From: a virus
Taxonomy: Duplodnaviria; Heunggongvirae; Uroviricota; Caudoviricetes
Reading direction: 5' to 3' (one strand)
Virus record (IMG/VR): IMGVR_UViG_3300031963_000058
Coordinates: 24,100 to 88,099 of that record
Length of the DNA stretch: 64,000 nucleotides
The notes below the pieces were generated by a model. It saw only the letters and a program-made list of their open reading frames with translations. It made no database searches and was not told the origin of the DNA. Positions 48,562 through 63,836 of the stretch are shown here, piece after piece. Within the stretch, counting starts at the first letter, position 1. Each line of letters begins with the position of its first letter. Position numbers and translations under genes: made by a program.

Positions 48562-48629
48562 AACTATTATTTTAACAATAAATATCTAGAATTTAAAAAA
48601 AAACTTTTTATAATTTCATATAATAGTCT

Positions 48630-48637: not shown

Positions 48638-48641
48638 TTGC

Positions 48642-49478: not shown

Positions 49479-49498
49479 AAAATAAAAAAAATAAGAAA

Positions 49499-50260: not shown

Positions 50261-50266
50261 AATAAA

Positions 50267-50919: not shown

Positions 50920-50940
50920 GATTACTTAAAACTTATTCTT

Positions 50941-51147: not shown

Positions 51148-51171
51148 AATATATTATATAAACATAGTATG

Positions 51172-51210
51172 ACGATTACTAGGGTAATACCTGGTAATCG
51201 TTTTTTTTAT
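51172..51210. terminator. Hairpin (ACGATTAC...GTAATCGT) plus a T8 run between convergent genes
   Basis: 8-bp stem plus T-run. It marks the proximal boundary of the tandem array. Confidence 0.55.
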
Positions 51211-51227: not shown

Positions 51228-51533
51228 TTACTTTGGTGTATGAAGTTTATATGTAACCTCTTTAATAGTATTTATATGAATTTCAAATTTATTCTCAATC
51301 CAGGAACTAAAAATCATTTCAAAGTCTTCTTTTGATACTGGGACTATCTTAGTAAGATCATCTCTGAATCTTTTATAGTAATACACAACACCGGTCCAGT
51401 GAATGCGGACGATAGAGGCACGATCATCTTTATTGTAAAGCTCTATATTATTTTTGTTTTCAATGACAATCAGCTTGTCAAACCTGGAATAGAACCAGTT
51501 CATGGTTCTACGATATGATTTATGGTTGTCCAT
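51228..51533 (-). CDS. ~100-aa tandem array family, subfamily A, copy 1
   Basis: Has the family pattern Y..I..W.Y..FDKL.V...........IVRIH..G.VYYY..F...L.KI.P....DFE....W.E.KF.I. Confidence 0.55.
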   Translation of the reverse strand: MDNHKSYRRTMNWFYSRFDKLIVIENKNNIELYNKDDRASIVRIHWTGVVYYYKRFRDDLTKIVPVSKEDFEMIFSSWIENKFEIHINTIKEVTYKLHTPK

Positions 51534-51572
51534 AATAATTAATTTGTTAGTTTAATTTTAAAAATTTTTTGA

Positions 51573-51872
51573 CTATTGTGATATTGAACTTGCGTGTATC
51601 TTAATTACTTTTATTTTAAATTTATCTTCGATCCAGGATGTTAAAAACAGTTCGAAGTCGTTGATACTTATTGGTATAATTTTAACTAGATCAAGCATAA
51701 AATCTTCATAATAAAAGATTTCACCTTCATTGTTTATCAAATATACTCGTATAACAGAATCTTCTTCTATATCAAAAAGATTTATTTTTTCATTGGTAGT
51801 ATAAAACGTCAGCATATCAAACTTGTGATAAAACCATTTCCTGATTTTAATATATGATTTTTCATTCTTCAT
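51573..51872 (-). CDS. ~100-aa tandem array family, subfamily A, copy 2
   Basis: Contains KWFYHKFDML...IRVYLINNEGEIFYYEDF...DFELFLTSWIEDKFKIKV. Confidence 0.6.
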   Translation of the reverse strand: MKNEKSYIKIRKWFYHKFDMLTFYTTNEKINLFDIEEDSVIRVYLINNEGEIFYYEDFMLDLVKIIPISINDFELFLTSWIEDKFKIKVIKIHASSISQ

Positions 51873-51885
51873 GATCCTGTGTTTC

Positions 51886-52170
51886 TTAGATTTTGACGTG
51901 CATTTTAGTTAGTTTTATTTTGAATTTATCTTCGATCCATTCTCTCAGAAACATTTCAAAATCTGCATTTTTAATAGGGATAACACTAACCAGATCATAC
52001 CTGAAGAATACGAAATAAAATGCTTCTTTTTCCGATTTATATATACGGACCACAGAAAACTCATGCTTATCCCTAAGCACTATTTTTTCAGTGTCCTCAG
52101 ATTCTTTCAACTTATCAAATTGGTTATAAAACCATCTCCTGGTTTTAAGATATAACTTATTTTCGCTCAT
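51886..52170 (-). CDS. ~100-aa tandem array family, subfamily A, copy 3
   Basis: Contains RWFYNQFDKL...VVRIYKSEKEAFYFVFF...DFEMFLREWIEDKFKIKL. Confidence 0.6.
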   Translation of the reverse strand: MSENKLYLKTRRWFYNQFDKLKESEDTEKIVLRDKHEFSVVRIYKSEKEAFYFVFFRYDLVSVIPIKNADFEMFLREWIEDKFKIKLTKMHVKI

Positions 52171-52196
52171 ATAACATATACTTTGATTGGGCCATA

Positions 52197-52496
52197 TTAG
52201 TTATAATCACTTTCACGTACATCATCGATTTTTAGGCCGAATTTCTCTTCGATCCATTTTACCAAGAACAATTCAAAATCCGATGTTTCTAATGGTATTA
52301 TTTTAGTTAAATAATATCTGAATCCGGCATAATAATATACCAAAATCTCATCATCATATATATAAATCCGAACAAATTTCGATTTATTATCTTTACTACT
52401 GAGGATTATACGATTTTCATCTGCGGTCACAATCAACTGATCAAATTTCATGTAAAACCATCTTATGACTTTAATATATAACTTATTTTCGCTCAT
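52197..52496 (-). CDS. ~100-aa tandem array family, subfamily A, copy 4
   Basis: Contains RWFYMKFDQLIV...SSKDNKSKFVRIYIYDDEILVYYY...DFELFLVKWIEEKFGLKI. It is preceded by the 26-nt junction ATAACATATACTTTGATTGGGCCATA, identical to the one at 52497. Confidence 0.6.
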   Translation of the reverse strand: MSENKLYIKVIRWFYMKFDQLIVTADENRIILSSKDNKSKFVRIYIYDDEILVYYYAGFRYYLTKIIPLETSDFELFLVKWIEEKFGLKIDDVRESDYN

Positions 52497-52522
52497 ATAA
52501 CATATACTTTGATTGGGCCATA

Positions 52523-52822
52523 TTACTTATAATCACTTTCATATACATAATCGATTTTTAGGCCGAATTTATCTTCGATCCATTCTTTCAAGAAAAATTC
52601 AAAGTCCAATCTTTCTAATGGTATTATTTTAGTTAACTGATATTTGAATCTAATATAATAATATACCAAAATCTCATCATCATATATATAAATCCGAACA
52701 AATTTCGATTTATTATCTTTACTACTGAGATTTATATTATCTTCATCTACAGTCACAATCAACTGATCAAATTTCTTGTAAAACCATCTCCTGGTTTTAA
52801 GATATAATAGTTCTTTACTCAT
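52523..52822 (-). CDS. ~100-aa tandem array family, subfamily A, copy 5
   Basis: The 24-aa block SSKDNKSKFVRIYIYDDEILVYYY is identical to copy 4, while the flanks differ, so the copies are mosaic. Confidence 0.6.
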   Translation of the reverse strand: MSKELLYLKTRRWFYKKFDQLIVTVDEDNINLSSKDNKSKFVRIYIYDDEILVYYYIRFKYQLTKIIPLERLDFEFFLKEWIEDKFGLKIDYVYESDYK

Positions 52823-52831
52823 AATACTATT

Positions 52832-53131
52832 TTAATAAACCGATTCATTGAATGGCCGGATAATTCGCACATTTATATTGAATTTATTTTCAACCCAATT
52901 GGCTAAAATAGTGTCAAAGTCGGATTGTGATATCGGGAACAGTTTAAACAACTTGTGCATATAATTTACATCGTAAAATACTTCACCATAATTTAGATAA
53001 ATTCGAATATCGCATTTAAAATCAATATATGTGTGAAGATGTAAAACTTTGCGTTCAGTGACAATTGTCAACTTTTCAAACTGATTATAAAACCATCTCC
53101 CGGCTTTAACATAAAATTTTAGTTTACTCAT
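52832..53131 (-). CDS. ~100-aa tandem array family, subfamily A, copy 6
   Basis: Contains RWFYNQFEKL...IRIYLNYGEVFYDVNY...DFDTILANWVENKFNINV. Confidence 0.55.
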   Translation of the reverse strand: MSKLKFYVKAGRWFYNQFEKLTIVTERKVLHLHTYIDFKCDIRIYLNYGEVFYDVNYMHKLFKLFPISQSDFDTILANWVENKFNINVRIIRPFNESVY

Positions 53132-53173
53132 ATTGGCAAATGTTTTTAAGATTCAATAGCCTGAAATATATCT

Positions 53174-53479
53174 TCAAAGTAAAGCATTTAAATACCAACT
53201 GTAGCTGTTGACTTTTTTAACTTTAATTCCGAATTTATGTTCGACCCACATAATTAAAAGTATTTCAAAATCAACGTTTGGTACCGGAAATTTTTGAATG
53301 ACTTTTTTCTTGAAATCTGTCATATAATAAACAATGCCGAACTTTTTATATATTCTAATTACAGAATATTCGTCGTCGTAAGGGCTAAGGTCTATTTTAT
53401 CCTCATCTTCTCTCACGAACAACACATCAAATTTCTTATAAAGAACCCTTCTTGCCGCTAGATATAATTTATCATCCAT
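53174..53479 (-). CDS. ~100-aa tandem array family, subfamily A, copy 7
   Basis: Contains RRVLYKKFDVL...VIRIYKKFGIVYYMTDF...DFEILLIMWVEHKFGIKV. Confidence 0.55.
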   Translation of the reverse strand: MDDKLYLAARRVLYKKFDVLFVREDEDKIDLSPYDDEYSVIRIYKKFGIVYYMTDFKKKVIQKFPVPNVDFEILLIMWVEHKFGIKVKKVNSYSWYLNALL

Positions 53480-53516
53480 AATAATCTTTTATCTTAATAA
53501 ATATAACATCTTCATA

Positions 53517-53813
53517 TTATGGCCGGAATCTCATTCTATATATGTTATTTATTTTAACTTTAAATTTTTCGTCAATCCATTGACATAAAAGCAATTCGAA
53601 GTCTTCTATTTGCATGGGGAATACATTAATGATCCTTTGCATGTAATCTTCGTAATAAAAAACCCTTTCAAGCTCTTTATAAATGTGAATAGTAATGCGA
53701 GGATCGTCGTCATGGCGAAGTTCTACAACATGATCAGATTCCCATACACCCAGGTTATTAAACTTCCTGTAGGTCCATTTTTGAGCCACACGGTATAATT
53801 TATCTTTGAGCAT
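53517..53813 (-). CDS. ~100-aa tandem array family, subfamily A, copy 8
   Basis: Contains KWTYRKFNNL...ITIHIYKELERVFYYEDY...DFELLLCQWIDEKFKVKI. The antisense ORF 53610..53798 is rejected. Confidence 0.55.
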   Translation of the reverse strand: MLKDKLYRVAQKWTYRKFNNLGVWESDHVVELRHDDDPRITIHIYKELERVFYYEDYMQRIINVFPMQIEDFELLLCQWIDEKFKVKINNIYRMRFRP

Positions 53814-54159
53814 AAATCATATAACTAACTTGGGGGTTAACTATTAACAAGTCAAAAGCTATGACTTCAGTTACTTTAATATCAAATTTATATTGTACCC
53901 ATTTTTTTAGCAGTAATTCGAAATCTTCGATTTGCATGGGGAATAACTTAATTATTTTTTTCATGTAATCTACGTTATAACATACACAACCATCACTTTT
54001 GTAAATTCGAATAATAGTCTTATTGTTGAGACAAGAACACAGAGTAATGCAAGATGGCTCATTGTCTTGTTCTTTCACCAGAGTATCGAACTTATTATTA
54101 ATCCATTTTCCGGCTATGTTATATAGCTTTTCTTTATCCATGATTGTACATGCTAGCAC
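53800..54159 (-). CDS. ~100-aa tandem array family, subfamily A, copy 9
   Basis: Contains KWINNKFDTL...IIRIYKSDGCVCYNVDY...DFELLLKKWVQYKFDIKV. The likely start is the internal MDKEKLY at about 54141. Confidence 0.55.
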   Translation of the reverse strand: MLACTIMDKEKLYNIAGKWINNKFDTLVKEQDNEPSCITLCSCLNNKTIIRIYKSDGCVCYNVDYMKKIIKLFPMQIEDFELLLKKWVQYKFDIKVTEVIAFDLLIVNPQVSYMIYAQR

Positions 54160-54451
54160 TAGAGGAAACTTCTATTATTTCAATGTTATAATTATCTTTA
54201 ACCCAATTCTTCAATAAGAAATTAAATAGGCTGATTTTCATTGGTAACATACTAGTAAGTTTATTTCTATATCCTCCTAAATAACAAACAAGATTACGAT
54301 TTTTATAGATCACAATAGTTGAGTCAGTATCACCTTTACGCTTAAGTGATATTTTTTCGATATCTTCAGATACGACCAGATTACTAAGTTTCCTTTGTAA
54401 CCATTTTTGAGTTATAGTATATAGCTTATCTTCGTTCATAGTAAAGAACAA
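54134..54451 (-). CDS. ~100-aa tandem array family, subfamily A, copy 10
   Basis: Contains KWLQRKLSNL...IVIYKNRNLVCYLGGY...SLFNFLLKNWVKDNYNIEI. Confidence 0.5.
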   Translation of the reverse strand: MFFTMNEDKLYTITQKWLQRKLSNLVVSEDIEKISLKRKGDTDSTIVIYKNRNLVCYLGGYRNKLTSMLPMKISLFNFLLKNWVKDNYNIEIIEVSSSASMYNHG

Positions 54452-54528
54452 AGGTACAGGATAAAATTAACAAATTCAAATAATTAAAAATAAATTGGGG
54501 GAGCTAAAATGGGGGGGATATGTACAAA

Positions 54529-54822
54529 TTAAAAAAGGAGGTCAATGATTTTATTTATTTTAATTTCACATTTACTTTCAATCCATCTACGTAAAAGAAT
54601 CTCAAAATCAATGATATTTAAGGCAAGTTTTTTACTAACTAGGTCTCTCAAGCGATGTGTATAATAAACATTACCTGTGGCTTTATAAATTCGTATAACA
54701 AAAAAAGAATCATTTTTATAACCGAAATATAAATTTTCTTCACAGTTTGAGATTACGTGCAGTTCATCAAATTTGCTATAAACCCATTTTTTTATGCTAT
54801 TATGATATTTTTCTTTATACAT
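54529..54822 (-). CDS. ~100-aa tandem array family, subfamily B, copy 1
   Basis: Contains KKWVYSKFDELHV...VIRIYKATGNVYYTHRL...DFEILLRRWIESKCEIKI. Confidence 0.6.
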   Translation of the reverse strand: MYKEKYHNSIKKWVYSKFDELHVISNCEENLYFGYKNDSFFVIRIYKATGNVYYTHRLRDLVSKKLALNIIDFEILLRRWIESKCEIKINKIIDLLF

Positions 54823-54827
54823 GCCAT

Positions 54828-55154
54828 TTAAAAATTAGAGTTAAAACCAGGTATGCGGACATCTGTTGTCTGTCTGATACTTTTCACATGTATTTTAAAT
54901 TTTTCTTCAACCCATCTACCCAAGAGTATTTCAAAATCTTCATATTCTAGTCGAATAAACTTAAAAAGTTTCTTTGCGAAACCATGATAATAAAAAACTC
55001 GGCCTGTGTGTTTAAAAATTAGGATCTGAGCGTAATCATCTCTATCGTAATGTAAATAACTTACAAGCCCATTAGGGTTATCATATAATTTTAGCTCGTC
55101 GAACTTTTTATATAACAATTTTTTTATGCTATTATAATATTGCTCTTTATCCAT
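54828..55154 (-). CDS. ~100-aa tandem array family, subfamily B, copy 2
   Basis: Contains MDKEQYYNSIKKLLYKKFDEL...DFEILLGRWVEEKFKIHV. Confidence 0.6.
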   Translation of the reverse strand: MDKEQYYNSIKKLLYKKFDELKLYDNPNGLVSYLHYDRDDYAQILIFKHTGRVFYYHGFAKKLFKFIRLEYEDFEILLGRWVEEKFKIHVKSIRQTTDVRIPGFNSNF

Positions 55155-55180
55155 ATTTAAAGATTTATAGTTTACCTTTA

Positions 55181-55495
55181 TTAAGCTATCGGGCGGCTAC
55201 GTACTACACAAATTATGACATTATCCACCTTCATTTGAAAGGTCTCTTCGACCCATCTTTTCAAAAGTATTTCAAAGTCATGCTTTTCAATGCGAAGATG
55301 TTTACAAATTTTCTCGCTGAATTCATAATAATAGTAAACATGACCAAATTTTTTATCAATTTCAACCTGAGTATATTCGCCATTTTTATAACGAAGATAC
55401 ACGTTACTCCCTTTCTTTCTTTTAATCACTTCCAGTTCATCAAACTTTCCATAAACCCATTTTTTTATTCTATTATAATATTGTTCTTTATCCAT
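55181..55495 (-). CDS. ~100-aa tandem array family, subfamily B, copy 3
   Basis: Contains MDKEQYYNRIKKWVYGKFDELEV...DFEILLKRWVEETFQMKV. The antisense ORF 55235..55501 is rejected. Confidence 0.6.
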   Translation of the reverse strand: MDKEQYYNRIKKWVYGKFDELEVIKRKKGSNVYLRYKNGEYTQVEIDKKFGHVYYYYEFSEKICKHLRIEKHDFEILLKRWVEETFQMKVDNVIICVVRSRPIA

Positions 55496-55517
55496 ATTTA
55501 AATATTTATACTGTTAA

Positions 55518-55835
55518 TTAGAATTTATCATCAACATCATACACCGTTGGAAGGGGGGAAATTACAGTCACCTTAATTTCAAGAATATCTTCAATATATG
55601 CACCCAGAATTATTTCAAAATCAATAATACCCATTGGAACCTTTTTAAGCAGATCGTTTGCGAATCCAATATAATAACAAACTAAGCCTGAACTTTTATG
55701 AATCCGGAGCTGAGGAAAATCATCATTCTTTTTATATAGGTATAAAGTACCTTCAGAGGTTTCAATTATGTACAGCTTATCAAGCTTGTTAGATAACCAA
55801 TTTTTTATTTTATTATAATATTGTTCTTTATCCAT
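55518..55835 (-). CDS. ~100-aa tandem array family, subfamily B, copy 4
   Basis: Contains MDKEQYYNKIKNWLSNKLDKL...DFEIILGAYIEDILEIKV. Confidence 0.6.
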   Translation of the reverse strand: MDKEQYYNKIKNWLSNKLDKLYIIETSEGTLYLYKKNDDFPQLRIHKSSGLVCYYIGFANDLLKKVPMGIIDFEIILGAYIEDILEIKVTVISPLPTVYDVDDKF

Positions 55836-55872
55836 GCCGTATTATTTATTATTAGCCATCACTTGAAAGGTA

Positions 55873-56190
55873 TCAATCAACAATGATTTCTCTTCCGACG
55901 ATCCTTTTAACCATTTTAGTTACCTTAATTTTAAATCTATCTTCAATCCATTTGCTCAGAATTATTTCAAAATCAGCCTCTTTCAAACGAATCCTGTTAA
56001 AAAATTTCTCACTAAACATATAATAATAAAAAACTATACCTGAATTTTTTTGAATTCGTATATCACAATATTTTTGATTTTTATATTTAAAAAATAAGTT
56101 ATTTCCATTAAGGCTTTCAATTACTTTCAGTTCATCAAACTTAATATAAAGCCATTTTTTTATTCTATCATAATATTCTTCTTTACTCAT
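55873..56190 (-). CDS. ~100-aa tandem array family, subfamily B, copy 5
   Basis: Contains MSKEEYYDRIKKWLYIKFDELKV...DFEIILSKWIEDRFKIKV. Confidence 0.6.
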   Translation of the reverse strand: MSKEEYYDRIKKWLYIKFDELKVIESLNGNNLFFKYKNQKYCDIRIQKNSGIVFYYYMFSEKFFNRIRLKEADFEIILSKWIEDRFKIKVTKMVKRIVGREIIVD

Positions 56191-56225
56191 ATTATTATAA
56201 TTTAACTTTTAGTTGAAAGGTTTTT

Positions 56226-56537
56226 TCAATAACATAATGTACCTGTATACCCCGGAATGATGGTGGCCACTTTCATTTTAAAGGTCTTTTTAATCCAATT
56301 GCTTAGAAGTGTTTCAAAGTCACGCTTTTGCAATCGAATCAGCTTAGAAATATTGTCCCTGAAAGCGGCATTATAGATAATTTGGTTGTATGTTTTTTCA
56401 ATACTGACCTGAATGTAAGCATTATCTTTGTAACGAAGGCATATTATTGTCCCATCGGAGCTTTCACTAACTTCCAGTTCATCAAACTTTCTGTATATCC
56501 AAATTTTTATTTTATTATAAAATTTTTCTTTATCCAT
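56226..56537 (-). CDS. ~100-aa tandem array family, subfamily B, copy 6
   Basis: Contains MDKEKFYNKIKIWIYRKFDELEV...DFETLLSNWIKKTFKMKV. The antisense ORF 56328..56543 is rejected. Confidence 0.6.
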   Translation of the reverse strand: MDKEKFYNKIKIWIYRKFDELEVSESSDGTIICLRYKDNAYIQVSIEKTYNQIIYNAAFRDNISKLIRLQKRDFETLLSNWIKKTFKMKVATIIPGYTGTLCY

Positions 56538-56548
56538 GATTAATTTAA

Positions 56549-56887
56549 TTAAATTTTCCTTTTGAATTTATGTTCAACAAACAGAACACGCACAACACCA
56601 ATAGACCGGATGTGAATAACATCTGTTTTAAACTTTTCTTCAACCCATCTGCCTAGGAGTATTTCGAAATCATTAGGATTCAAAGAAATTGGTTTAATAA
56701 TTTTATCCATAAAACCATTATAATACTGAATTATGCCACTATTTTTTCTAATTTTGATCTGAACTTGGTCATCATTTTTATAATGAAGATATATTGTGCT
56801 TCCATTATAACTTTCATATATATTCAGCCCATTGAACTTTTCATATATCCATTTTTTTATTTTATTATAATATTTTTCTTTATCCAT
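56549..56887 (-). CDS. ~100-aa tandem array family, subfamily B, copy 7
   Basis: Contains MDKEKYYNKIKKWIYEKFNGL...DFEILLGRWVEEKFKTDV. Confidence 0.6.
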   Translation of the reverse strand: MDKEKYYNKIKKWIYEKFNGLNIYESYNGSTIYLHYKNDDQVQIKIRKNSGIIQYYNGFMDKIIKPISLNPNDFEILLGRWVEEKFKTDVIHIRSIGVVRVLFVEHKFKRKI

Positions 56888-56930
56888 ATTATTTAAGTTT
56901 TATTTTGGAGGCATATTTAACGTTCATCAA

Positions 56931-57230
56931 CTATAAAAAGTATCTACCGGCCATGTCAGTAACCTTGATTTTAAATCTATCTTCAATCCATTCGCTCAGA
57001 AGGATATCAAAATCATCTCGTAGCAATCTAATAGGCTTACAAATTTTGTTTCTGTAGTCTGTATAATAGACTACATCGCCTAATTTTTTGTTAATTATGA
57101 TCTGAGTATATTTATTATTTTTATAACGAAGGCATATTGTGTCCTCACTATAAATTTTGTGTGGTTCAAGCTCATCAAACTTCCTGTACACCCAATTTTT
57201 TATTTTATTATAATACTCTTCTTTATCCAT
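56931..57230 (-). CDS. ~100-aa tandem array family, subfamily B, copy 8
   Basis: Contains MDKEEYYNKIKNWVYRKFDELE...DFDILLSEWIEDRFKIKV. Confidence 0.6.
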   Translation of the reverse strand: MDKEEYYNKIKNWVYRKFDELEPHKIYSEDTICLRYKNNKYTQIIINKKLGDVVYYTDYRNKICKPIRLLRDDFDILLSEWIEDRFKIKVTDMAGRYFL

Positions 57231-57259
57231 ATCATTTAAGTTTTATTTTGGAGGCATCT

Positions 57260-57574
57260 TCAACCAGAAAACACAACTTTAAAGTCAAATTCTGAGTTGC
57301 GTACAACCTTTATTTTTAAGGTATCTTCAACCCATCTGTTCAAAAGTATTTCAAAATCAACCACTTTCAAGTCAACCATTTTACAAATTTTTTGTCTGAA
57401 TTTATAGTAATTTAAAACACTACCAAATTCTTTTTGAATTATGACCTCAACATGACCTTCATTTTTATAATGAAGATATATAAGATTTCCGTTATTATGT
57501 TCAATCACTTCCAATTCATTAAACCTTTTATAAATGAATCTTTTTATTTTATTATAATATTCTTCTTTATCCAT
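57260..57574 (-). CDS. ~100-aa tandem array family, subfamily B, copy 9
   Basis: Contains MDKEEYYNKIKRFIYKRFNELEV...DFEILLNRWVEDTLKIKV. Confidence 0.6.
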   Translation of the reverse strand: MDKEEYYNKIKRFIYKRFNELEVIEHNNGNLIYLHYKNEGHVEVIIQKEFGSVLNYYKFRQKICKMVDLKVVDFEILLNRWVEDTLKIKVVRNSEFDFKVVFSG

Positions 57575-57575
57575 A

Positions 57576-57917
57576 TCATTTAAGTTTTATTTGGTTGGTA
57601 TTTTCAACCAACATTGATTGTTTCAGTGTCCGTACAGCGGTGCTGATCATTTTTATTTGAAAGGTATCTTCAACCCATTTGCTCAGAAGTATTTCAAAAT
57701 CAGTCTTTTCCAAACTAATTGTCTTACAAATTTTGTTTCTGAATCTAAAATAATAAAGAACCCTACCTGATTTTTTATTAATCTTGATTTGAGCGTATTC
57801 TTCATTTTTATAACGAAGATACAAATACTCTCCATTATTACGTTCAATCAGTTCCAATTCATTAAACCTTTTATAAATGAATCTTTTTATTTTATTATAA
57901 TACTTTTCTTTGCTCAT
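57576..57917 (-). CDS. ~100-aa tandem array family, subfamily B, copy 10
   Basis: Contains MSKEKYYNKIKRFIYKRFNELEL...DFEILLSKWVEDTFQIKM. The tail ends ...VENTNQIKLK, a second in-frame copy of the motif. Confidence 0.6.
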   Translation of the reverse strand: MSKEKYYNKIKRFIYKRFNELELIERNNGEYLYLRYKNEEYAQIKINKKSGRVLYYFRFRNKICKTISLEKTDFEILLSKWVEDTFQIKMISTAVRTLKQSMLVENTNQIKLK

Positions 57918-57929
57918 ATCATTGAATTT

Positions 57930-58259
57930 TTATTTCAAAGGTATGTACAACGTTGATGACAGCAGCACATTACATCTTTGGATAAGTATTTGTTTAATTT
58001 TAAAGGTATCTTCAATCCAGGCCCTTAAGATTATTTCAAAATCACGCTTTTCCAACTGAAATATCTTACAAATTTTGTCACTTAAAGTATAAGAATAGTA
58101 AACAAAATCTGATTTTTTATTAATTCGAATCTGAGCGTATTCTTCATTTTTATAACGAAGATACAAATTATTTCCTCTATTACGTTTAACCACTTCCAGT
58201 TCGTCAAACTTTCTGTAAATGATTTTTTTTATTTTACTATAATATTCTTCTTTGCTCAT
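57930..58259 (-). CDS. ~100-aa tandem array family, subfamily B, copy 11
   Basis: Contains MSKEEYYSKIKKIIYRKFDELEV...DFEIILRAWIEDTFKIKQ. The tail ends YIPLK, encoded by TACCTTTG. Confidence 0.6.
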   Translation of the reverse strand: MSKEEYYSKIKKIIYRKFDELEVVKRNRGNNLYLRYKNEEYAQIRINKKSDFVYYSYTLSDKICKIFQLEKRDFEIILRAWIEDTFKIKQILIQRCNVLLSSTLYIPLK

Positions 58260-58288
58260 ATCATTTAATTTTTATTTGAAAGGTATCT

Positions 58289-58603
58289 TCAACGAACAAG
58301 CCAATTAACACCAAAACTTCCTGAGGTGTAACTCACCTTCATTTGAAAGGTTTCTTCAACCCAGCTCTTCAAAAGTATTTCAAAATCAACCTGATTAATG
58401 CCAATCATATAACAAATTTTCTTCTTATATTCAGAATAATAGTATACTTCGCCAAATTTTTTATTAATTATGATTTCAGCATATTCGTTATTTTTATAAC
58501 GAAGATACAAAGTATTGCCATCATTACGTTTAACCACTTCCAGTACATCAAACTTTCTGTAGATGTACTTTTTTATTATATTATAATATTTTTCTTTTCT
58601 CAT
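58289..58603 (-). CDS. ~100-aa tandem array family, subfamily B, copy 12
   Basis: Contains MRKEKYYNIIKKYIYRKFDVLEV...DFEILLKSWVEETFQMKV. The antisense ORF 58343..58612 is rejected. Confidence 0.6.
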   Translation of the reverse strand: MRKEKYYNIIKKYIYRKFDVLEVVKRNDGNTLYLRYKNNEYAEIIINKKFGEVYYYSEYKKKICYMIGINQVDFEILLKSWVEETFQMKVSYTSGSFGVNWLVR

Positions 58604-58615
58604 ATCATTTAATTT

Positions 58616-58948
58616 TTATTTGGGAGGTATTTTTAACCTGATTGTGAATGACCCTGGAGACAAAATTAGGATATAGTTAACCTTAATTTTGAATTTATCT
58701 TCAACCCATCTGCTCAAAAGTATTTCAAAATCACGCTTTTCTATAGGGATTGGCTTAAGAATTTTGCTTCTAAATCTATAATAATAAATTACTTCACCTG
58801 AATTTCTTTTAACTAGGATCTTAGCATAATCATCATTTTTATACCGAAGATATATGTCGTTCCCATTATCACGTTCAATAACTTCTAATTCATTAAACTT
58901 TCTGTAAATGTACTTTTTTATTTTATTATAATATTTTTCTTTATTCAT
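58616..58948 (-). CDS. ~100-aa tandem array family, subfamily B, copy 13
   Basis: Contains MNKEKYYNKIKKYIYRKFNELEV...DFEILLSRWVEDKFKIKV. The tail ends LKIPPK. Confidence 0.6.
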   Translation of the reverse strand: MNKEKYYNKIKKYIYRKFNELEVIERDNGNDIYLRYKNDDYAKILVKRNSGEVIYYYRFRSKILKPIPIEKRDFEILLSRWVEDKFKIKVNYILILSPGSFTIRLKIPPK

Positions 58949-58949
58949 A

Positions 58950-59294
58950 TCAGTTATCTTTTAACCTGTAAGGTATTCTTAACGCGGTGATAGTCTTGTG
59001 TCCATCCCAGCCATAGATTTCATTAACTTTCATTTGAAATGTATCTTCAATAAATACCCTCAAAAGTATTTCAAAATCACGATTTTCTATAGGAATTGGC
59101 TTAATAATTTTGTTGCTAAACCCATAATAATAGATTAGTTCACCTACAGTTCTTTTAGCTCGGATCTCAGCATATTTTTCACCTTTATAATAAAGGTATA
59201 TCTCATTTCCATCACTACTTTCAAATACCTCCAGTTCCTCAAACTTTCTGTAAATGTATCTTTTTATTTTGCTGTAATAGTCTTCTTTACTCAT
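58950..59294 (-). CDS. ~100-aa tandem array family, subfamily B, copy 14
   Basis: Contains MSKEDYYSKIKRYIYRKFEELEV...DFEILLRVFIEDTFQMKV. Confidence 0.6.
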   Translation of the reverse strand: MSKEDYYSKIKRYIYRKFEELEVFESSDGNEIYLYYKGEKYAEIRAKRTVGELIYYYGFSNKIIKPIPIENRDFEILLRVFIEDTFQMKVNEIYGWDGHKTITALRIPYRLKDN

Positions 59295-59306
59295 ATCATT
59301 TAATTT

Positions 59307-59636
59307 TTATTTGGGAGGTTTCTTTAACTCTGTGGCGTTGCTCATATACTTGAGCCCGGTGTCATTAACTTTCATTTGAAAGGTATCTTCAACCCATCGC
59401 TTTAAAAGTATTTCAAAATCAACATTTTCCAATGCTATTGGTTTAATAATTTTATCTCTATATTTAGATTGATAGTAAATATAACCCGATTTTTTTTGAA
59501 TTAGGATCTGATCATATTTCGCATTGTTATAATGAAGAAATATATCGTTTCCAAGATTACGTTTGCTCACTTCCAGTTCGTCAAACTTTCTGTACACGAA
59601 TTTTTTTATTTTATTATAATACTGTTCTTTGCTCAT
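59307..59636 (-). CDS. ~100-aa tandem array family, subfamily B, copy 15
   Basis: Contains MSKEQYYNKIKKFVYRKFDELEV...DFEILLKRWVEDTFQMKV. The tail ends LKKPPK. Confidence 0.6.
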   Translation of the reverse strand: MSKEQYYNKIKKFVYRKFDELEVSKRNLGNDIFLHYNNAKYDQILIQKKSGYIYYQSKYRDKIIKPIALENVDFEILLKRWVEDTFQMKVNDTGLKYMSNATELKKPPK

Positions 59637-59714
59637 GTTATTTAAATTTTATTTGAAGGGTATCTTCAACCTGCAATATATTTGAGTACAGCCGCTGTAT
59701 GGTGTTGATCACCT

Positions 59715-60044
59715 TTATTTTAAAGGTATCTTCAACGGAAATTGGTGAACGAACCCGGTGCAATGGGTGTTGATCACCTTTATTTTAAAGGTATCTTCAA
59801 CCCATTTAGTTAGAAGTATTTCAAAATCATCCTGTTCCAACCGAATCATGTTATCAATTTTGTATCTGAATCTTCTAAAATAGTAAACCCAACCTGAGTT
59901 TTTATTGATCATGATTTGAGCGGAGTCACCATTTTTATAACGAAGATACAACTCATTTCGATTATTACGTTCAACCAATTCCAGTTCGTTAAACTTTCTA
60001 TAAACCAATCTTTTTATTTTATTATAATATTCTTCTTTTTTCAT
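59715..60044 (-). CDS. ~100-aa tandem array family, subfamily B, copy 16
   Basis: Contains MKKEEYYNKIKRLVYRKFNELEL...DFEILLTKWVEDTFKIKV. The tail ends LKIPLK. The antisense ORF 59916..60239 is rejected. Confidence 0.6.
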   Translation of the reverse strand: MKKEEYYNKIKRLVYRKFNELELVERNNRNELYLRYKNGDSAQIMINKNSGWVYYFRRFRYKIDNMIRLEQDDFEILLTKWVEDTFKIKVINTHCTGFVHQFPLKIPLK

Positions 60045-60056
60045 ATCATTAAAATT

Positions 60057-60380
60057 TTATTTGAAAGGAATCTCAAATCTGTCGAAGGTTTCTCCACCCT
60101 TAGAATAGATCTCATTAACCTTTATTTGAAGGGTATTTTCAATCCATCTGTACAGAAGTATTTCAAAATCACGTGTCTCCAACCGGGTTATATTAATAAT
60201 TTTCTTTTTAAATCCAGAATAATAGTAAACATAACCTAATTCTTTTCGAATTAGGATGTCGGCATAATCATCGTTTTTATAACGAAGATACACATAAGCT
60301 CCTTTATTAATCACTTCCAGTTCATCAAACTTTCTGTAAATGTACCTTTTTATTTTATTATAATACTGTTCTTTGCTCAT
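60057..60380 (-). CDS. ~100-aa tandem array family, subfamily B, copy 17
   Basis: Contains MSKEQYYNKIKRYIYRKFDELEV...DFEILLYRWIENTLQIKV. Confidence 0.6.
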   Translation of the reverse strand: MSKEQYYNKIKRYIYRKFDELEVINKGAYVYLRYKNDDYADILIRKELGYVYYYSGFKKKIINITRLETRDFEILLYRWIENTLQIKVNEIYSKGGETFDRFEIPFK

Positions 60381-60381
60381 G

Positions 60382-60726
60382 TTATCTAAATTTTATTTTA
60401 AAAGTATCTTCAACGACTAGCAGCACCTCTGCGTACTTTATCGCGTTGGCATTTTTCATCTTCATTTGAAATGTATCTTTAATCCATCTCTTCAATAGAA
60501 TTTCAAAATCACGTTTTTCCAACGGAACTATCTTATTAATTTTATCTCTGAATCCAGTATAGTAGGAAACTTTAAGTAAGCTTTTATTAACCACTATTTT
60601 AGCAAATTCAGCATGTTTGTAACGAAGATACAAATAATTTCCATCATTACTTTCGAATACCTCCAGTTCCTCAAACTTTCTGTAAATGTATCTTTTTATT
60701 TTGTTGTAATATTTTTCTTTACTCAT
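60382..60726 (-). CDS. ~100-aa tandem array family, subfamily B, copy 18
   Basis: Contains MSKEKYYNKIKRYIYRKFEELEV...DFEILLKRWIKDTFQMKM. Confidence 0.6.
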   Translation of the reverse strand: MSKEKYYNKIKRYIYRKFEELEVFESNDGNYLYLRYKHAEFAKIVVNKSLLKVSYYTGFRDKINKIVPLEKRDFEILLKRWIKDTFQMKMKNANAIKYAEVLLVVEDTFKIKFR

Positions 60727-60738
60727 GTCATTTAATTT

Positions 60739-61068
60739 TTATTTGGGTGGCATATTCAATGCTGCCATTGAAAGAAACTTCGATATCCAGACGCCGGTCA
60801 CTTTTATTTTAAATTTATCTTCAACCCATTTCTTCAAAAAAATTTTAAAATCAATCTCTTCAAACCGAAATATCTTATTAATTTTGTCTCTGAATCTTTT
60901 AGAATAGAAAACCCGACCTGAGTTTTTATAGATCACAATCTCCGCATAACCTTTGTTTTTATAACCAAAACACAAAATATTCCCATTATCACCTTCAGCC
61001 ACTTCCAGTTCATCAAACCTTCTGTAAACAAATCTTTTTATTTTACTATAATATTCCTTTTTGCTCAT
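60739..61068 (-). CDS. ~100-aa tandem array family, subfamily B, copy 19
   Basis: Contains MSKKEYYSKIKRFVYRRFDELEV...DFKIFLKKWVEDKFKIKV. The tail ...FLSMAALNMPPK is shared with copy 20. Confidence 0.6.
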   Translation of the reverse strand: MSKKEYYSKIKRFVYRRFDELEVAEGDNGNILCFGYKNKGYAEIVIYKNSGRVFYSKRFRDKINKIFRFEEIDFKIFLKKWVEDKFKIKVTGVWISKFLSMAALNMPPK

Positions 61069-61080
61069 ATCATTTAATTT

Positions 61081-61410
61081 TTATTTGGGAGGTATATTCA
61101 ATGCAGCCATTGAAAGAAACTTCGATCTCCAGATGCCGGTCACTTTTATTTGAAATTTATCTTCAACCCATTGCTCTAAAAGTATTTCAAAATCACGGTT
61201 TTCCAGCGGAATTTTCTTAAAAATTTTGTCTTTGAATCTATAATAATAGAAAACCCAACCCGAATTTTTTTCAATTACAATCTGAGCACGGTCAGGATTT
61301 TTATAATGAAGATAAACGTAAATTCCATCATTACGTTCGCTAACTTGCAGCGAATCAATTTCCCGATAAATGATATTTTTTATTCCTTTATATAACCTAT
61401 CTTTACTCAT
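61081..61410 (-). CDS. ~100-aa tandem array family, subfamily B, copy 20
   Basis: Contains MSKDRLYKGIKNIIYREIDSLQV...DFEILLEQWVEDKFQIKV. The tail is ...KFLSMAALNIPPK. Confidence 0.6.
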   Translation of the reverse strand: MSKDRLYKGIKNIIYREIDSLQVSERNDGIYVYLHYKNPDRAQIVIEKNSGWVFYYYRFKDKIFKKIPLENRDFEILLEQWVEDKFQIKVTGIWRSKFLSMAALNIPPK

Positions 61411-61415
61411 GTCAT

Positions 61416-61751
61416 TTAAGTTATTTTATTGGTATCTTCAACGAGCAGACCGCTCATGTAATCAATTTTAACAGTGAGCTCCACTTTTATTTGAAAAGTA
61501 TCTTGAACCCATCGTTCTAAAAGTATTTTAAAATCACGCGTTTCCAACTGAATGATATTACAAATTTTGTCTTTAAATTCATAATAATAAAAAATAAACC
61601 CAGTTGTTTTTCCGATTACGATCTGTGCATATTTATCATTTTTATAGCGAATATACAAATCATTGTTATGACTACTATGAATCACTTCCAGTTCGTCAAA
61701 CTTTCGGTAAACAAATCTTTTTATTTTACTATAATATTCTTCTTTGCTCAT
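61416..61751 (-). CDS. ~100-aa tandem array family, subfamily B, copy 21
   Basis: Contains MSKEEYYSKIKRFVYRKFDELEV...DFKILLERWVQDTFQIKV. Confidence 0.6.
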   Translation of the reverse strand: MSKEEYYSKIKRFVYRKFDELEVIHSSHNNDLYIRYKNDKYAQIVIGKTTGFIFYYYEFKDKICNIIQLETRDFKILLERWVQDTFQIKVELTVKIDYMSGLLVEDTNKIT

Positions 61752-61763
61752 GTTATCTAAATT

Positions 61764-62102
61764 TTATTTGAAAGGTATCTTCAACATCATATGCTCGATC
61801 ACGAGTACGCACTCATGGGTGTGATTCACCTTCATTTGAAAGGTATCTTCAACCCATCTGCCCAGAAGTATTTCAAAATCAACCTTTTCTAAATTAATTG
61901 TCATAAAAAATTTGTCACTAAGTTCATAGTTATAGTTATAGTATACTTCACCTGATTTTTTCTTAATTAGGATTTCAGCATATTCGTTATTTTTATAATG
62001 AAGATACAAGTCATTTCGTTTATTACGTTCAGTTACTTCCAGTTCATCAAACTTTCTGTAAACAAATCTTTTTATTTTACTATAATATTCTTCTTTGCTC
62101 AT
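61764..62102 (-). CDS. ~100-aa tandem array family, subfamily B, copy 22
   Basis: Contains MSKEEYYSKIKRFVYRKFDELEV...DFEILLGRWVEDTFQMKV. The tail ends LKIPFK. Confidence 0.6.
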   Translation of the reverse strand: MSKEEYYSKIKRFVYRKFDELEVTERNKRNDLYLHYKNNEYAEILIKKKSGEVYYNYNYELSDKFFMTINLEKVDFEILLGRWVEDTFQMKVNHTHECVLVIEHMMLKIPFK

Positions 62103-62131
62103 GTTACTTAGTTTTTATTTGGAAGGTATCT

Positions 62132-62446
62132 TCAATCAATGAGTATAATGGTGTATTTTTGGGGTATAATGTCGCTAACCTTAATTTGAAAGGTTTCTTC
62201 AATCCATTTGCCCAAAAGTATTTCAAAATCACTATTTTCCATATGAATTACCTTAATAAATTTGTTTCTAAAGTTACGATAATAGTAAACATTACCCGAT
62301 TTTATATTAATTCGGATCTGAGCATATGGTTCATTATTATAACGAAGAAACAAAGCATCGCCAAGATTACGTTCAACCACTTCCAATTCATTAAACTTTC
62401 GGTAAACAAATCTTTTTATTTTACTATAATACTCTTCTTTACTCAT
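62132..62446 (-). CDS. ~100-aa tandem array family, subfamily B, copy 23
   Basis: Contains MSKEEYYSKIKRFVYRKFNELEV...DFEILLGKWIEETFQIKV. The antisense ORF 62159..62467 is rejected. Confidence 0.6.
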   Translation of the reverse strand: MSKEEYYSKIKRFVYRKFNELEVVERNLGDALFLRYNNEPYAQIRINIKSGNVYYYRNFRNKFIKVIHMENSDFEILLGKWIEETFQIKVSDIIPQKYTIILID

Positions 62447-62450
62447 TTTA

Positions 62451-62789
62451 TTAAAATTTTATCTTAAAGTTATGTTCATCCATCGGGCTCCACCGTGAAA
62501 ACCTCATCTTGATATTGATCACCTTTATTTTAAATGTATCTTCAACCCATCTCTTCAAAAGAATTTCAAAATCAGTCTGTTCCAACCGAACTATCTTATT
62601 AATTTTATCTCTGAATTTAGTATAGTAGTAAACCAAACTAGATTTTTTATCAATCATGATTTGAACGAATTCGTCATTTTTGTGACGAAGATACAAATAA
62701 TTTCCTTTATCACGTTCAACCACTTCCAGTTCTTCAAACTTTCTGTAAATGAATATTTTTATTTTATTATAATACTGTTCTTTGCTCAT
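62451..62789 (-). CDS. ~100-aa tandem array family, subfamily B, copy 24
   Basis: Contains MSKEQYYNKIKIFIYRKFEELEV...DFEILLKRWVEDTFKIKV. Confidence 0.6.
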   Translation of the reverse strand: MSKEQYYNKIKIFIYRKFEELEVVERDKGNYLYLRHKNDEFVQIMIDKKSSLVYYYTKFRDKINKIVRLEQTDFEILLKRWVEDTFKIKVINIKMRFSRWSPMDEHNFKIKF

Positions 62790-62801
62790 GTTATCTAAAT
62801 T

Positions 62802-63134
62802 TTATTTTAAAGGTATTTTTAGCCAAGCACGTGATCGTGTTTTTTTGCCATGTAAGATTTGTTTTACCTTCACTTGAAAAGTATTTTCAATCCATTTGCT
62901 CAAAAATAACTCAAAATCAGTCGTTTCCAACGGGATTATTTTATACATTTTTTTACTTAACCTATAAGAGTAGTAAACCTTACCTGATTTTTTTTCAATT
63001 AATATCTGGGCATATATTTCATTATTATAACGAATATACAAAACATTTCCTTTATCACGTTCAACCACTTCCAGTTCTTCAAACTTTCTGTAAATGAATA
63101 TTTTTATTTTATTATAATACTGTTCTTTGCTCAT
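62802..63134 (-). CDS. ~100-aa tandem array family, subfamily B, copy 25
   Basis: N-terminal 22 aa are identical to copy 24 (MSKEQYYNKIKIFIYRKFEELEVVERDKGN). Continues ...DFELFLSKWIENTFQVKV and the tail ends LKIPLK. The antisense ORF 62831..63097 is rejected. Confidence 0.6.
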   Translation of the reverse strand: MSKEQYYNKIKIFIYRKFEELEVVERDKGNVLYIRYNNEIYAQILIEKKSGKVYYSYRLSKKMYKIIPLETTDFELFLSKWIENTFQVKVKQILHGKKTRSRAWLKIPLK

Positions 63135-63163
63135 GTTATATAAATTTTATTTGGGATGTATCT

Positions 63164-63478
63164 TCAAATTCGGTACCATGAATAATTACTGTACCACAGG
63201 GTATTGATCACTTTTATTTTAAAGGTATCTTCAACCCATCTATCCAAAAGAATTTCAAAATCACGCATTTTCAACGGAACCATCTTATTAATTTTATCTT
63301 TGAATCCAGTATAGTAGTAAACCAAACCTGAGTTTTTATCGATCACAATCTCAGCATAACCTTTGTTTTTATAACCAAGATACAAAAAATTTCCATTATT
63401 ACGGTCAATAACTTCCAGCTCATTAAACCTTTTATAAACGAATCTTTTTATTTTACTATAATATTCTTCTTTGCTCAT
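63164..63478 (-). CDS. ~100-aa tandem array family, subfamily B, copy 26
   Basis: Contains MSKEEYYSKIKRFVYKRFNELEV...DFEILLDRWVEDTFKIKV. Confidence 0.6.
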   Translation of the reverse strand: MSKEEYYSKIKRFVYKRFNELEVIDRNNGNFLYLGYKNKGYAEIVIDKNSGLVYYYTGFKDKINKMVPLKMRDFEILLDRWVEDTFKIKVINTLWYSNYSWYRI

Positions 63479-63490
63479 GTTATCTAAATT

Positions 63491-63820
63491 TTATTTAGTT
63501 GGTATCTTCAACCAACGAATCAGGTGGCTTGGGATTACAGCAGGGTGACTTACCTTAATTTGAAAGGTATTTTCAATCCATCCTTTCAAGAATATTTGAA
63601 AATCAGCATTTTCTAAACGAATTGTATAAAAAAATTTGTCTCTAAAATTATAATGATAGTATACTTCACCTGATTTTTTATTAATTAGGATATTTGCATA
63701 TTCACTATTTTTATAATGAAGATATATTTTCTTTCCATTAGTACTTTTGAATACCTCTAGTTCATCAAACTTTCTGTAAATTAATTTTTTTATTTTATTA
63801 TAATATTCTTCTTTGCTCAT
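63491..63820 (-). CDS. ~100-aa tandem array family, subfamily B, copy 27
   Basis: Contains MSKEEYYNKIKKLIYRKFDELEV...DFQIFLKGWIENTFQIKV. The tail ends LKIPTK. Confidence 0.6.
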   Translation of the reverse strand: MSKEEYYNKIKKLIYRKFDELEVFKSTNGKKIYLHYKNSEYANILINKKSGEVYYHYNFRDKFFYTIRLENADFQIFLKGWIENTFQIKVSHPAVIPSHLIRWLKIPTK

Positions 63821-63836
63821 ATCATTTAGTTTTTAT

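Follow-up and report, generated by a model that had tools for sequence, protein, structure and literature searches.

Mosaic gene copies in a 50-member tandem family of an uncultured freshwater jumbo phage: evidence for recombination between misaligned paralogs

Background

Paralog expansions occur in jumbo phages and giant viruses, and concerted evolution combined with birth-and-death evolution is known from repeated families, the rDNA spacers being another example. Tandem multigene families with unequal crossing-over and gene conversion have been described in the arrays of Trypanosoma brucei (PMC1855330) and in plant resistance-gene clusters (PMC3113787). The present work concerns a tandem array of small paralogous genes in a virus of the Caudoviricetes, located at the end of a 64,000-nucleotide stretch of DNA (positions 24,100 to 88,099 of the IMG/VR record IMGVR_UViG_3300031963_000058), which is called the window hereafter. 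Comparison with related lineages indicates that this large phage gene family very probably evolves by homologous recombination between misaligned copies, and that the mosaic copies found in it are the products of this process.

The so-called genomic accordions are also to be considered here; they are recent and near-identical amplifications of one gene under acute selection, which later collapse. In phages and poxviruses, segments that carry counter-defence genes are amplified in this way by recombination that uses short homologies, as documented for T4 tifA under toxIN selection (bioRxiv 10.1101/2022.04.14.488369 / PMC9391042) and for the SegB-driven amplification in T6 (PMC13096335).

The phage array resembles the tandem multigene families in its head-to-tail units, in its chimeras with duplicated junctions, in its short conversion tracts that are often found between neighbours, in paralogs that have lineage-specific states in common, and in copy-number differences whose breakpoints lie mostly in common segments. 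It differs from them in that it belongs to a bacterial virus of 277.6 kb and is made of units of only ~343 nt with almost no intergenic DNA, and its copies are strongly diverged, so that birth-and-death and patch exchange dominate over full homogenisation. Like the accordions, the array gains and loses tandem copies via short homologies, varies in copy number between close lineages and has a plausible link to an arms race with the host. In contrast to accordion copies, however, the array copies are old and individually diverged, many of them with orthologs in two other lineages, and their pairwise nucleotide identity of 52-87% is not that of near-identical copies. Genomes that are at least 99.9% identical share the same units, save for two deletions in one of them (L002, see below), and whole-unit differences are seen only at ~90-95% identity. 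No homing endonuclease was found by Pfam among the flanking proteins scanned near the array. As in the jumbo-phage and giant-virus expansions, a large viral genome carries several tandem families of uncharacterised paralogs; compared to these, the present family has 50 copies, and duplication, fusion and conversion can be reconstructed and polarised in it with three lineages. Our literature search retrieved no paper on recombination inside a phage paralog array.

Results

The array and its related lineages

The array is encoded on the minus strand and fills the last 12.8 kb of the window with 37 complete paralogous open reading frames (ORFs) and a truncated 38th. The first gene, g1, is located at 51228-51533 and the last complete one, g37, at 63491-63820, and the products are 94 to 114 amino acids long. 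The intergenic gaps range from small overlaps up to 78 nt and are mostly of 1-43 nt. According to Tandem Repeats Finder (TRF), the repeat period is 342-346 nt, and 326 nt at g5-g3, the units being of ~343 nt; homologous units thus follow each other head to tail with a period of ~326-346 nt, as in a tandem multigene family. Using a profile hidden Markov model (HMM), 37 matches were found in the window, none of them before position 51228, and 50 copies (43 + 7) were found in the 277,584-bp source contig (ENA ERZ27247984, k141_1797313). Beyond the window the same arm runs to g43, and is followed by an opposite-strand gene coding for a 210-amino-acid protein with no known domains and then by seven oppositely oriented members. 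The 50 copies are estimated to make up ~17 kb, or ~6% of the genome. IMG/VR contains a 103-kb fragment of the same virus, and a single-protein scan of viral contigs returned only this near-identical contig. Core nucleotide identity among the copies ranges from ~52% to 87% and declines with distance along the array, g1-g10 being the most divergent members and g19-g37 forming a tighter subfamily.

Two other lineages were recovered by exact-protein look-ups and profile search. The closest relative is represented by contig L011 (12.4 kb), whose units are designated by the letter r, and by L013 (a 10.8-kb locus of a 27.2-kb contig), both from ENA ERZ17174968. They are ~90-100% identical to the window in orthologous stretches, with ~92-100% for L011 and its Logan counterpart L012, and sample only part of the relative's array. 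The outgroup, L014, and its counterpart L015 come from two Logan runs; they are 100% identical to each other and ~87-92% identical to the window. The stretch from ~52378 to 55170 of the window (from just after g13 to nt 119 of g4) is 99.7% identical over 2.8 kb to positions 6353-9144 of L011, and the g5, g8, g9, g10 and g11 orthologs are 100% identical, as against only 92-96% for several flanking orthologs. This near-identical stretch suggests a recent exchange between the window lineage and its relative.

A chimeric gene in a tandem duplication

The initial annotation was centred on three neighbouring genes, which are arranged, in gene orientation, as g5, junction, g4, junction and g3 (Table 1). 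A repeat finder detected the corresponding repeat as a pair of segments, 52107-52406 and 52433-52732, that are 90% identical. The alignment of the three units showed that g4 is equal to g3 over the 26 nt upstream and over nt 1-21 of the coding sequence (CDS; 21/21), whereas it tracks g5 from ~nt 46, unit nt 71-326 being 90% identical to g5 with the downstream junction included. The parentage switch is located in a box common to g3 and g5 (TATCTTAAAACCAGGAGATGGTTTTA), in which 25 of 26 positions are identical over CDS nt 22-47. Five g4-specific substitutions, leading to three amino acid changes, are found within nt 22-39 of g4, and four of them are also present in the relative. The proposed match between the N-termini of g3 and g4 was thereby borne out for MSENKLY, which is encoded by the 21 identical nucleotides, but not for the '..RRWFY' pattern proposed after it, as g4 reads IKVIRWFY. 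With 87% nucleotide identity, a value reached by no other pair, g4 and g5 have a ratio of non-synonymous to synonymous substitution rates (dN/dS) of ~1.0-1.2. The block of 24 amino acids (SSKDNKSKFVRIYIYDDEILVYYY) described as common to g4 and g5 was found again, and corresponds at the DNA level to an exact repeat of 75 nt (52329-52403 = 52655-52729). The outgroup gene that stands at this place (X, see below) differs from this block at ~6 of 75 positions, as counted by hand on the alignment, and L011 g4 has five clustered, derived-looking changes within it.

This layout, i.e. A, B/A chimera and B with a duplicated junction, is what a single out-of-register crossover between g5 and g3 should yield. 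Within the 326-nt repeat, g4 is a chimeric unit with duplicated junctions, which is the footprint of unequal crossing-over. The crossover occurred in the ~26-nt box common to the 5' ends of g5 and g3, and generated the 326-nt duplication and hence g4.

The same g5-g4-g3 arrangement is present in L011, and the duplication therefore predates the split between the window lineage and its relative. In L014 and L015, only one gene, X, is found between the g7 and g3 orthologs, where g6, g5 and g4 stand in the window. The N-terminus of X is of the g5 type. Among the sites that differ between g4 and g5, X agrees with g5 in 27 cases, with g4 in 14 and with neither of them in 8, and these states are interspersed along the gene. 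Upstream of X lies the same spacer as upstream of g6 in the window, and downstream of it a junction of the type that L011 has before g3. As far as can be judged from the sequences, the outgroup fits the state before the duplication.

Later conversion of a junction

The two 26-nt junctions of the triplet (52171-52196 and 52497-52522), which had been noticed for being identical, are indeed so, and are part of an exact repeat of 50 nt (52150-52199 = 52476-52525). Five copies of the region made of a gene tail, a junction and the start of the next gene were aligned, namely g5-g4 and g4-g3 of the window, g5-g4 and g4-g3 of L011, and X-g3 of L014. The g4-g3 copy of the window differs from its L011 ortholog at 11 sites within 52165-52205. 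At all 11 polarised sites, L011 has the base of the outgroup, whereas the window has the base of the paralogous g5-g4 copy. Outside this tract, the differences are either specific to L011 or specific to the window without a match to the paralog. The g4-g3 and g5-g4 junctions differ at 7 of 27 positions in L011, whereas they are identical in the window. Moreover, the divergence between the g3 orthologs is concentrated in the tract, with 17 differences in 76 nt versus 15 in 270 nt (Fisher p=4.6e-5).

Thus, with orthologs and an outgroup at hand, the paralogs are seen to share derived states, as is required for the recognition of a non-reciprocal transfer. The simplest reading of these alignments is that the identical junctions result from a later gene conversion in the window lineage, separate from the duplication. 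A non-reciprocal transfer of 41-66 nt, from 52476-52541 to 52150-52215, produced them. In the window lineage, the start region of g3 was overwritten through codon 2 by this later conversion. The triplet bears the marks of two events that differ in age, the duplication having come first and the conversion second.

Mosaicism across the array

A tract scan was applied to all copies, in which the differences of each pair were placed by simulation in proportion to the family-wide mismatch rate of each column and the score was the longest rate-weighted stretch free of differences. Among the 666 pairs formed by the 37 copies, 14 had p<=0.001 (0.67 expected) and 47 had p<=0.01 (6.7 expected). When the rates were taken within g19-g37, the pairs g20/g21, g29/g30 and g34/g35 were at the simulation floor (p=2e-4) and g24/g28 was at p=4e-4; with rates taken within g1-g10, p=2e-4 was obtained for g3/g5 and p=4e-4 for g4/g5. 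Neighbours are over-represented within g19-g37, as they make up 5 of the 13 pairs with p<=0.01 versus 18 of all 171 pairs. The distance matrices calculated for three contiguous thirds of the gene had a mean Spearman correlation of 0.166, whereas 1000 random partitions of the columns gave 0.428 +/- 0.048 and never so low a value, and for 17 of 23 genes the nearest paralog was a different one in each third. Both the segment correlation and the tract scans therefore show that the relationships between copies change along the unit. A column-shuffle test in the style of GENECONV was set aside, as it is anti-conservative when conserved columns cluster. An automatic search for donors that included 60 nt of upstream flank was replaced by hand-built quartets, as it was confounded at places where the lineages have different neighbouring units.

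Several individual cases were analysed. The tail reported as common to g29 (60739-61068) and g30 (61081-61410) was confirmed at the DNA level, with 97 of 104 positions identical over unit nt 239-342 versus 154 of 238 in the rest of the unit. The body of g29, unlike its tail, is closest to g36 (82%). An identical N-terminus had also been reported for g34 (62451-62789) and g35 (62802-63134); it exists but extends over 30 amino acids and not 22. Past the exact repeat of 95 nt at their 5' ends, identity between g34 and g35 falls to 70% and then to 41%. The g34 ortholog of the relative carries a different 5' end, and the 57-nt 5' segment of g34/g35 is found, 100% identical, on another unit of L011, r10, which is made of this segment followed by the body of g26 and the tail of g20.

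A quartet was built with g27, g31 and their respective L011 orthologs, r6 and r2. Over the last ~250 nt, r6 is identical to g27 except at 3 positions. In the upstream 30 nt and first 75 coding nt, r6 and g27 have ~17 differences, and r6 is there identical to r2 except at one position. In total, r6 and g27 differ at 20 sites, and at 18 of these r6 has the base of r2. Seven of the eight 'concerted' sites are in the first 85 columns of the alignment, and the 70 'orthologous' sites are past column 122 with two exceptions; no cross-pattern site was found.

Gain, loss and fusion of units

The complement of units differs between the lineages. Over the part of the relative's array that L011 and L013 cover, no counterpart of g13, g17, g21 and g24 is present in L011, and g35-g43 were also found only in the window lineage. 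Conversely, r1, r12, r13, r16 and r30 occur only on the L011 side without a counterpart in the window, g26 is located elsewhere in L011, and r15 is a remnant of g16. The additional unit r16 has a duplicated 'g16 tail + first 20 nt of g15' at its flanks, which is the same type of footprint as that of g4. In L014, protein P0039 is an in-frame fusion of g9 and g8 across a stretch of 100 nt that matches both genes. The g34 ortholog is the first gene of the relative's arm, whereas the arm of the window lineage contains nine further units (g43-g35) there. Outside the window, a region of 153 nt immediately upstream of this first gene has only 4 differences between the lineages (L003 7723-7875, L013 9848-10000); the gene next to it is g43 in the window lineage and the g34 ortholog in the relative. 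The breakpoints lie mostly in segments common to the copies, i.e. in the first 20-90 nt of the CDS, in the DFE..W.ED region or in the repeated 3' motif described below.

Two deletions were detected in L002 (JGI 3300008117), which is otherwise essentially identical to the window. One is an in-frame deletion of 138 nt inside g20 (57668-57805), and the other an out-of-frame deletion of 271 nt that joins g8 to g7 (53374-53644). Single array members therefore appear to be dispensable.

A repeated motif-plus-spacer module at the 3' end

In g14-g43, a coding motif, GTTGAAGATACCTTTCAAAT(A/G)AA, encodes (W)VEDTFQIK and starts near unit position 244 (238-250). A second copy is located at unit position 301-318, i.e. 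60-69 nt (mostly 65-69 nt) further on and ~32-40 nt before the next start codon. From g14 upward, the end of the unit thus consists of a module of ~66 nt, made of the 23-nt motif and a spacer of ~37 nt, and then of the second motif copy. Internal copies are found for instance at 57655-57674 and 61834-61853, and terminal copies at 58274-58293 and 61766-61785. Depending on the unit, the second copy is read in any of the three frames (...LKIPxK*, ...VEDTxKIK..*, or a TGA stop inside GTTGA) or is untranslated, and the terminal motif is therefore conserved as DNA and not as peptide. Within the window the motif is confined to the array (27 matches versus 0.02 expected), with all copies direct and on one strand.

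Not all units have the same number of modules. Three motif copies are found in g26, in g39 (L003 9248-9657) and in a gene of 135 codons in L013 (10344-10751), in whose product all three copies are in frame and VEDTFQMKVNHT is repeated. An extra module downstream of g26 contains a third copy of GTTGAAGATACC(C/T)TTCAAAT. In L011, no g26 separates the orthologs of g27 and g25, and this module is found directly between the two. The module number probably varies through slippage or unequal exchange.

The ~37-nt spacers of paralogs are 0.53 identical, compared to 0.51 after shuffling, whereas third positions of the gene core are 70% identical. Between orthologs, the spacer has diverged by 2.1%, exactly as the middle of the gene (2.1%), and there is therefore no ongoing hypermutation. 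For this reason, targeted hypermutation of the 3' spacers as by a diversity-generating retroelement (DGR) was rejected. No template-repeat copy of the variable region was noticed in the unit alignment, although no dedicated search was made and the ORFs were not all screened for reverse transcriptase. A CRISPR-like organisation was also rejected, as each 343-nt unit contains only 2-3 repeats, of which the first, like the spacer, is part of a reading frame. A genome-wide or sigma-70-type promoter was rejected as well, since the motif is found in the array only and promoter-like sites are not enriched (99 versus 84 +/- 9). In our preferred reading, the 3' end results from a small tandem duplication in which the gene end was copied, the terminal motif being kept similar by exchange with the selected internal copy, perhaps with an additional role in starting the next gene, and the cores look younger than the spacers through repeated homogenisation.

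The protein family

The ORFs align over ~96 residues, with conserved positions that are mostly aromatic or hydrophobic and the consensus MSKExYYNKIK..YRKFDELEV...YL.YKN..Y..I.I.K..G.V.YY..F..KI.K.I.LE..DFEILL..WVED.F.IKV. An AlphaFold2 model based on a 37-sequence alignment was confident (mean pLDDT 91.4, pTM 0.82) and predicts a helix, four strands, two helices and a strand in this order, followed by a less confident C-terminal tail. The array proteins gave no match above threshold to Pfam, PHROG or NCBIfam, and no sequence or fold match in the PDB. No homolog was found by tblastn in 50,697 GenBank phage records, and a nucleotide search of the GenBank phages with the array sequence was likewise empty. 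A profile search of 1.84 billion representative proteins returned only 72 matches at E<=1e-3.

Foldseek against BFVD identified ten proteins of 'uncultured Caudovirales phage' (A0A6J5L5S8 to A0A6J5LB14), with TM-scores of 0.59-0.75 on the query and E-values of 1e-7 to 1e-3. Judging from their neighbouring accession numbers, they may all come from a single phage genome. Like the array, they form a multi-copy family with the same predicted fold and without annotation; unlike it, some members are 176-329 amino acids long, and sequence identity to the array proteins is only 10-20%. With a confident predicted fold and no named family, the model and the searches together define a new protein family. 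The conserved residues are of the core type and no obvious catalytic set was recognised, and the median dN/dS among subfamily B pairs is 0.49. The protein might be a non-enzymatic binding scaffold diversified against host targets.

Other features of the window

The coordinates of the features are given in Table 1. The hairpin between g1 and the convergent gene may be the transcriptional end of the array, as a putative terminator recognised by its consensus. In the g8-g10 region (window 53800-54159 and 54134-54451), g8 and g9 overlap by 14 nt, and g9 and g10 by 8-26 nt. The ORFs called by program for g9 and g10 begin at GTG and TTG, respectively, upstream of in-frame ATGs (MDKEKLY and MNEDKLY), which are probably the true starts because they fit the family consensus better.

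The other genes of the window are typical of phages, and include those coding for ThyX and for proteins with an SLT lysozyme domain, DUF932 or DUF5856. Homologs of the DUF932 protein at ~30% identity are found in jumbo phages and in Flavobacterium phages. The GC content of the window is ~29%. The source is an uncultured freshwater jumbo phage. Its genome is unusually rich in expanded families, as at least five more tandem or clustered paralog families were observed in the window (20197-28610 on the plus strand, 34118-36416 on the minus strand, 46382-50734, 47203-48561 and 39492-40026), the largest of which has 8-10 copies of ~300 amino acids each; no Pfam domain was found in the scanned members of these families. 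A 472-amino-acid protein (41006-42424, plus strand) contains short C-terminal repeats rich in W, G, N and T (GTWHNGTF, NGTWHDGIF) and has no Pfam match. Long antisense and alternative-frame ORFs overlie this repeat stretch and are probably a by-product of the repeats.

Table 1. Location of the array and of the features identified in and next to it (window coordinates)
Feature	Coordinates	Strand	Basis or remark
Putative terminator-like 13-bp hairpin and T run	51171..51202	+	Consensus match only; between g1 and convergent gene 50890-51147
Tandem array	51228..64000	-	37 genes and 3' part of g38; ORF list, alignment, TRF
g3 (94 aa)	51886..52170	-	Donor of first 21 nt of g4
Tandem duplication, period 326 nt, 2.2 copies	52107..52807	-	TRF, 88% matches; register offset from gene boundaries
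Conversion recipient: g4 tail, g4-g3 junction, g3 start	52150..52215 (outer limits)	-	Polarised sites 52165-52205
g4 (99 aa), chimeric gene	52197..52496	-	Three-way alignment, segment identities
75-nt block of g4, encodes SSKDNKSKFVRIYIYDDEILVYYY	52329..52403	-	Exact copy of 52655-52729 in g5; tract p=4e-4
Conversion donor: g5 tail, g5-g4 junction, g4 start	52476..52541	-	326 nt from recipient
g5 (99 aa), parent of g4 body	52523..52822	-	100% identical to L011 ortholog
Extra motif-plus-spacer module downstream of g26	59637..59714	-	Third copy of GTTGAAGATACC(C/T)TTCAAAT; motif comparison
g29 unit 3' segment	60727..60830	-	97/104 identical to that of g30 (61069-61172); same arrangement in L011
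95-nt exact repeat, g34 5' end	62700..62794	-	Equal to g35 63045-63139; sequence comparison

Discussion

Segmental exchange among array members had been proposed from patchwork identity within a single genome, and the comparison with two other lineages now supports it on stronger grounds. Under recombination between misaligned copies, patch transfers of ~40-170 nt similar to the one seen at the g4-g3 junction, together with gains, losses and fusions of units, have happened many times across the array and in the related lineages. Recombination during phage DNA replication may drive these exchanges, in which the conserved boxes would provide mere homology for strand exchange. Homogenisation would keep the gene cores 70-80% alike, while the ~37-nt 3' spacers would diverge to a random level of similarity. 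The proteins could represent a diversified binding set used against the host, which would explain the retention of so many diverged copies.

Some points weigh against this explanation. No recombinase was found among the eight flanking proteins scanned, none of which matched a Pfam family of any kind, and the function of the array proteins is entirely inferred. Both L002 deletions use only 1-5 nt of microhomology, and not every array rearrangement is therefore homology-driven. The outgroup could have lost units secondarily instead of representing the state before the duplication. The 75-nt block common to g4 and g5 is probably due to retention or purifying selection, or to old homogenisation, and not to recent conversion, because X resembles the block and the changes in L011 g4 look derived. 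The pairwise homoplasy index (PHI) test, applied to the short and saturated core of 288 nt, gave p ~0.01 when restricted to g19-g37 but showed no signal with the full set of 37 copies, PHI being above expectation. In addition, every sequence compared is a metagenome consensus contig.

The ancestral aspect of the 75-nt block is what would be expected if no exchange had followed duplication, in which case the pattern would stem from the original duplications and uneven divergence, with identical blocks under purifying selection and flanks that are relaxed or diversifying. The high dN/dS of young duplicates, both for g4 and g5 and as the median in subfamily B, points in the same direction, as it indicates that divergence is uneven and partly driven by selection. 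This explanation is nevertheless very unlikely. It leaves unexplained that all 11 polarised sites, mostly in a non-coding junction, switched to the exact state of the paralog, that paralogs have lineage-specific states in common (g27/g31 quartet), that the 57-nt 5' segment is carried by different units in different lineages, and that identity extends to synonymous and intergenic positions; the tract scans were, moreover, already corrected for differences in site rates. An origin of the mosaics in the assembly itself was considered as well, either through collapse or mis-threading of repeats in short-read assembly, or through contigs that are chimeric for co-occurring strains. The data consist entirely of contigs assembled from short metagenome reads, the array is rich in repeats, and strains do co-occur in samples, as exemplified by L004, L007, L009 and L010, which are 95-99.6% identical to the window. 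However, the window arrangement recurs with hardly a base changed in ENA, JGI and NCBI records that come from independent samples and pipelines, with 3 mismatches in 20,300 positions for L001, near-complete identity apart from its two deletions for L002, and 100% identity for L005, L006 and L008. The relative's arrangement is also reproduced (L012, from Logan, matches L011, from ENA, at 99.8%), as is that of the outgroup in its two Logan runs (100%). The longest exact repeats measured, of 50, 75 and 95 nt, fall short of the k=141 that the names of the contigs ('k141') imply, and a mixture of strains could not have put the paralogous junction sequence at g4-g3. The collapse of repeats during assembly, which the initial annotation had named as the observation that would overturn its proposal, is therefore highly improbable.

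The motif-plus-spacer modules lend themselves to another explanation, according to which diversification is programmed and the 5' box, together with the 23-nt direct repeat GTTGAAGATACCTTTCAAATAAA that brackets the ~37-nt spacer, constitutes dedicated recombination sites comparable to those of antigenic-variation loci or shufflons. This would account for a terminal motif that is kept at the DNA level despite three reading frames or no translation, for its restriction to the array, for the variable number of modules (2 or 3 motif copies), for the coincidence of several breakpoints of unit insertions and deletions with the boxes, and for the spacers between motif copies that are unrelated between paralogs. 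On the other hand, the repeats are direct and not inverted, and the scan of the eight flanking proteins revealed neither a recombinase nor any other Pfam family, so that the organisation, as far as these proteins show, is not that of a shufflon or invertible cassette. The end-points of the tracts are spread over several regions, as in general homologous recombination, and between orthologs the spacers evolve no faster than the rest of the gene, which is not the pattern of a DGR either. The internal motif copy is conserved simply for encoding WVEDTFQIKV, and nothing requires a dedicated recombination signal in the 3' motif. We therefore regard programmed diversification as quite unlikely. A wider form of the idea would see the locus as a combinatorial system, in which the boxes are kept as signals and the 5' segment, body and 3' tail modules are shuffled among ~50 cassettes. 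If this were true, the phage population would possess a rapidly re-assorting repertoire of a binding protein of new fold directed against variable host targets, the viral counterpart of antigenic-variation cassettes, but such a system is unlikely to be what is seen here.

Conclusions

Recombination between misaligned copies, the explanation that we favour, is a textbook process and the ordinary behaviour of tandem multigene families; it is the protein family that is new. The locus is a clean natural example in a phage, in which three related lineages make it possible to order and polarise single events of duplication, fusion and conversion. Since the copies are mosaic, no meaning can be attached to trees built from one of these genes at a time, and orthology assigned between strains gene by gene will be erroneous. 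The array shows a jumbo phage building and reshuffling a family of 50 copies that occupies, by our estimate, ~6% of its genome, with a confidently predicted fold whose only relatives, in structure or in sequence, are from uncultured freshwater phages. The size, divergence and turnover of the family suggest that it acts on the host, and if so it would be a candidate for a large and unexplored repertoire of phage-host interaction proteins.

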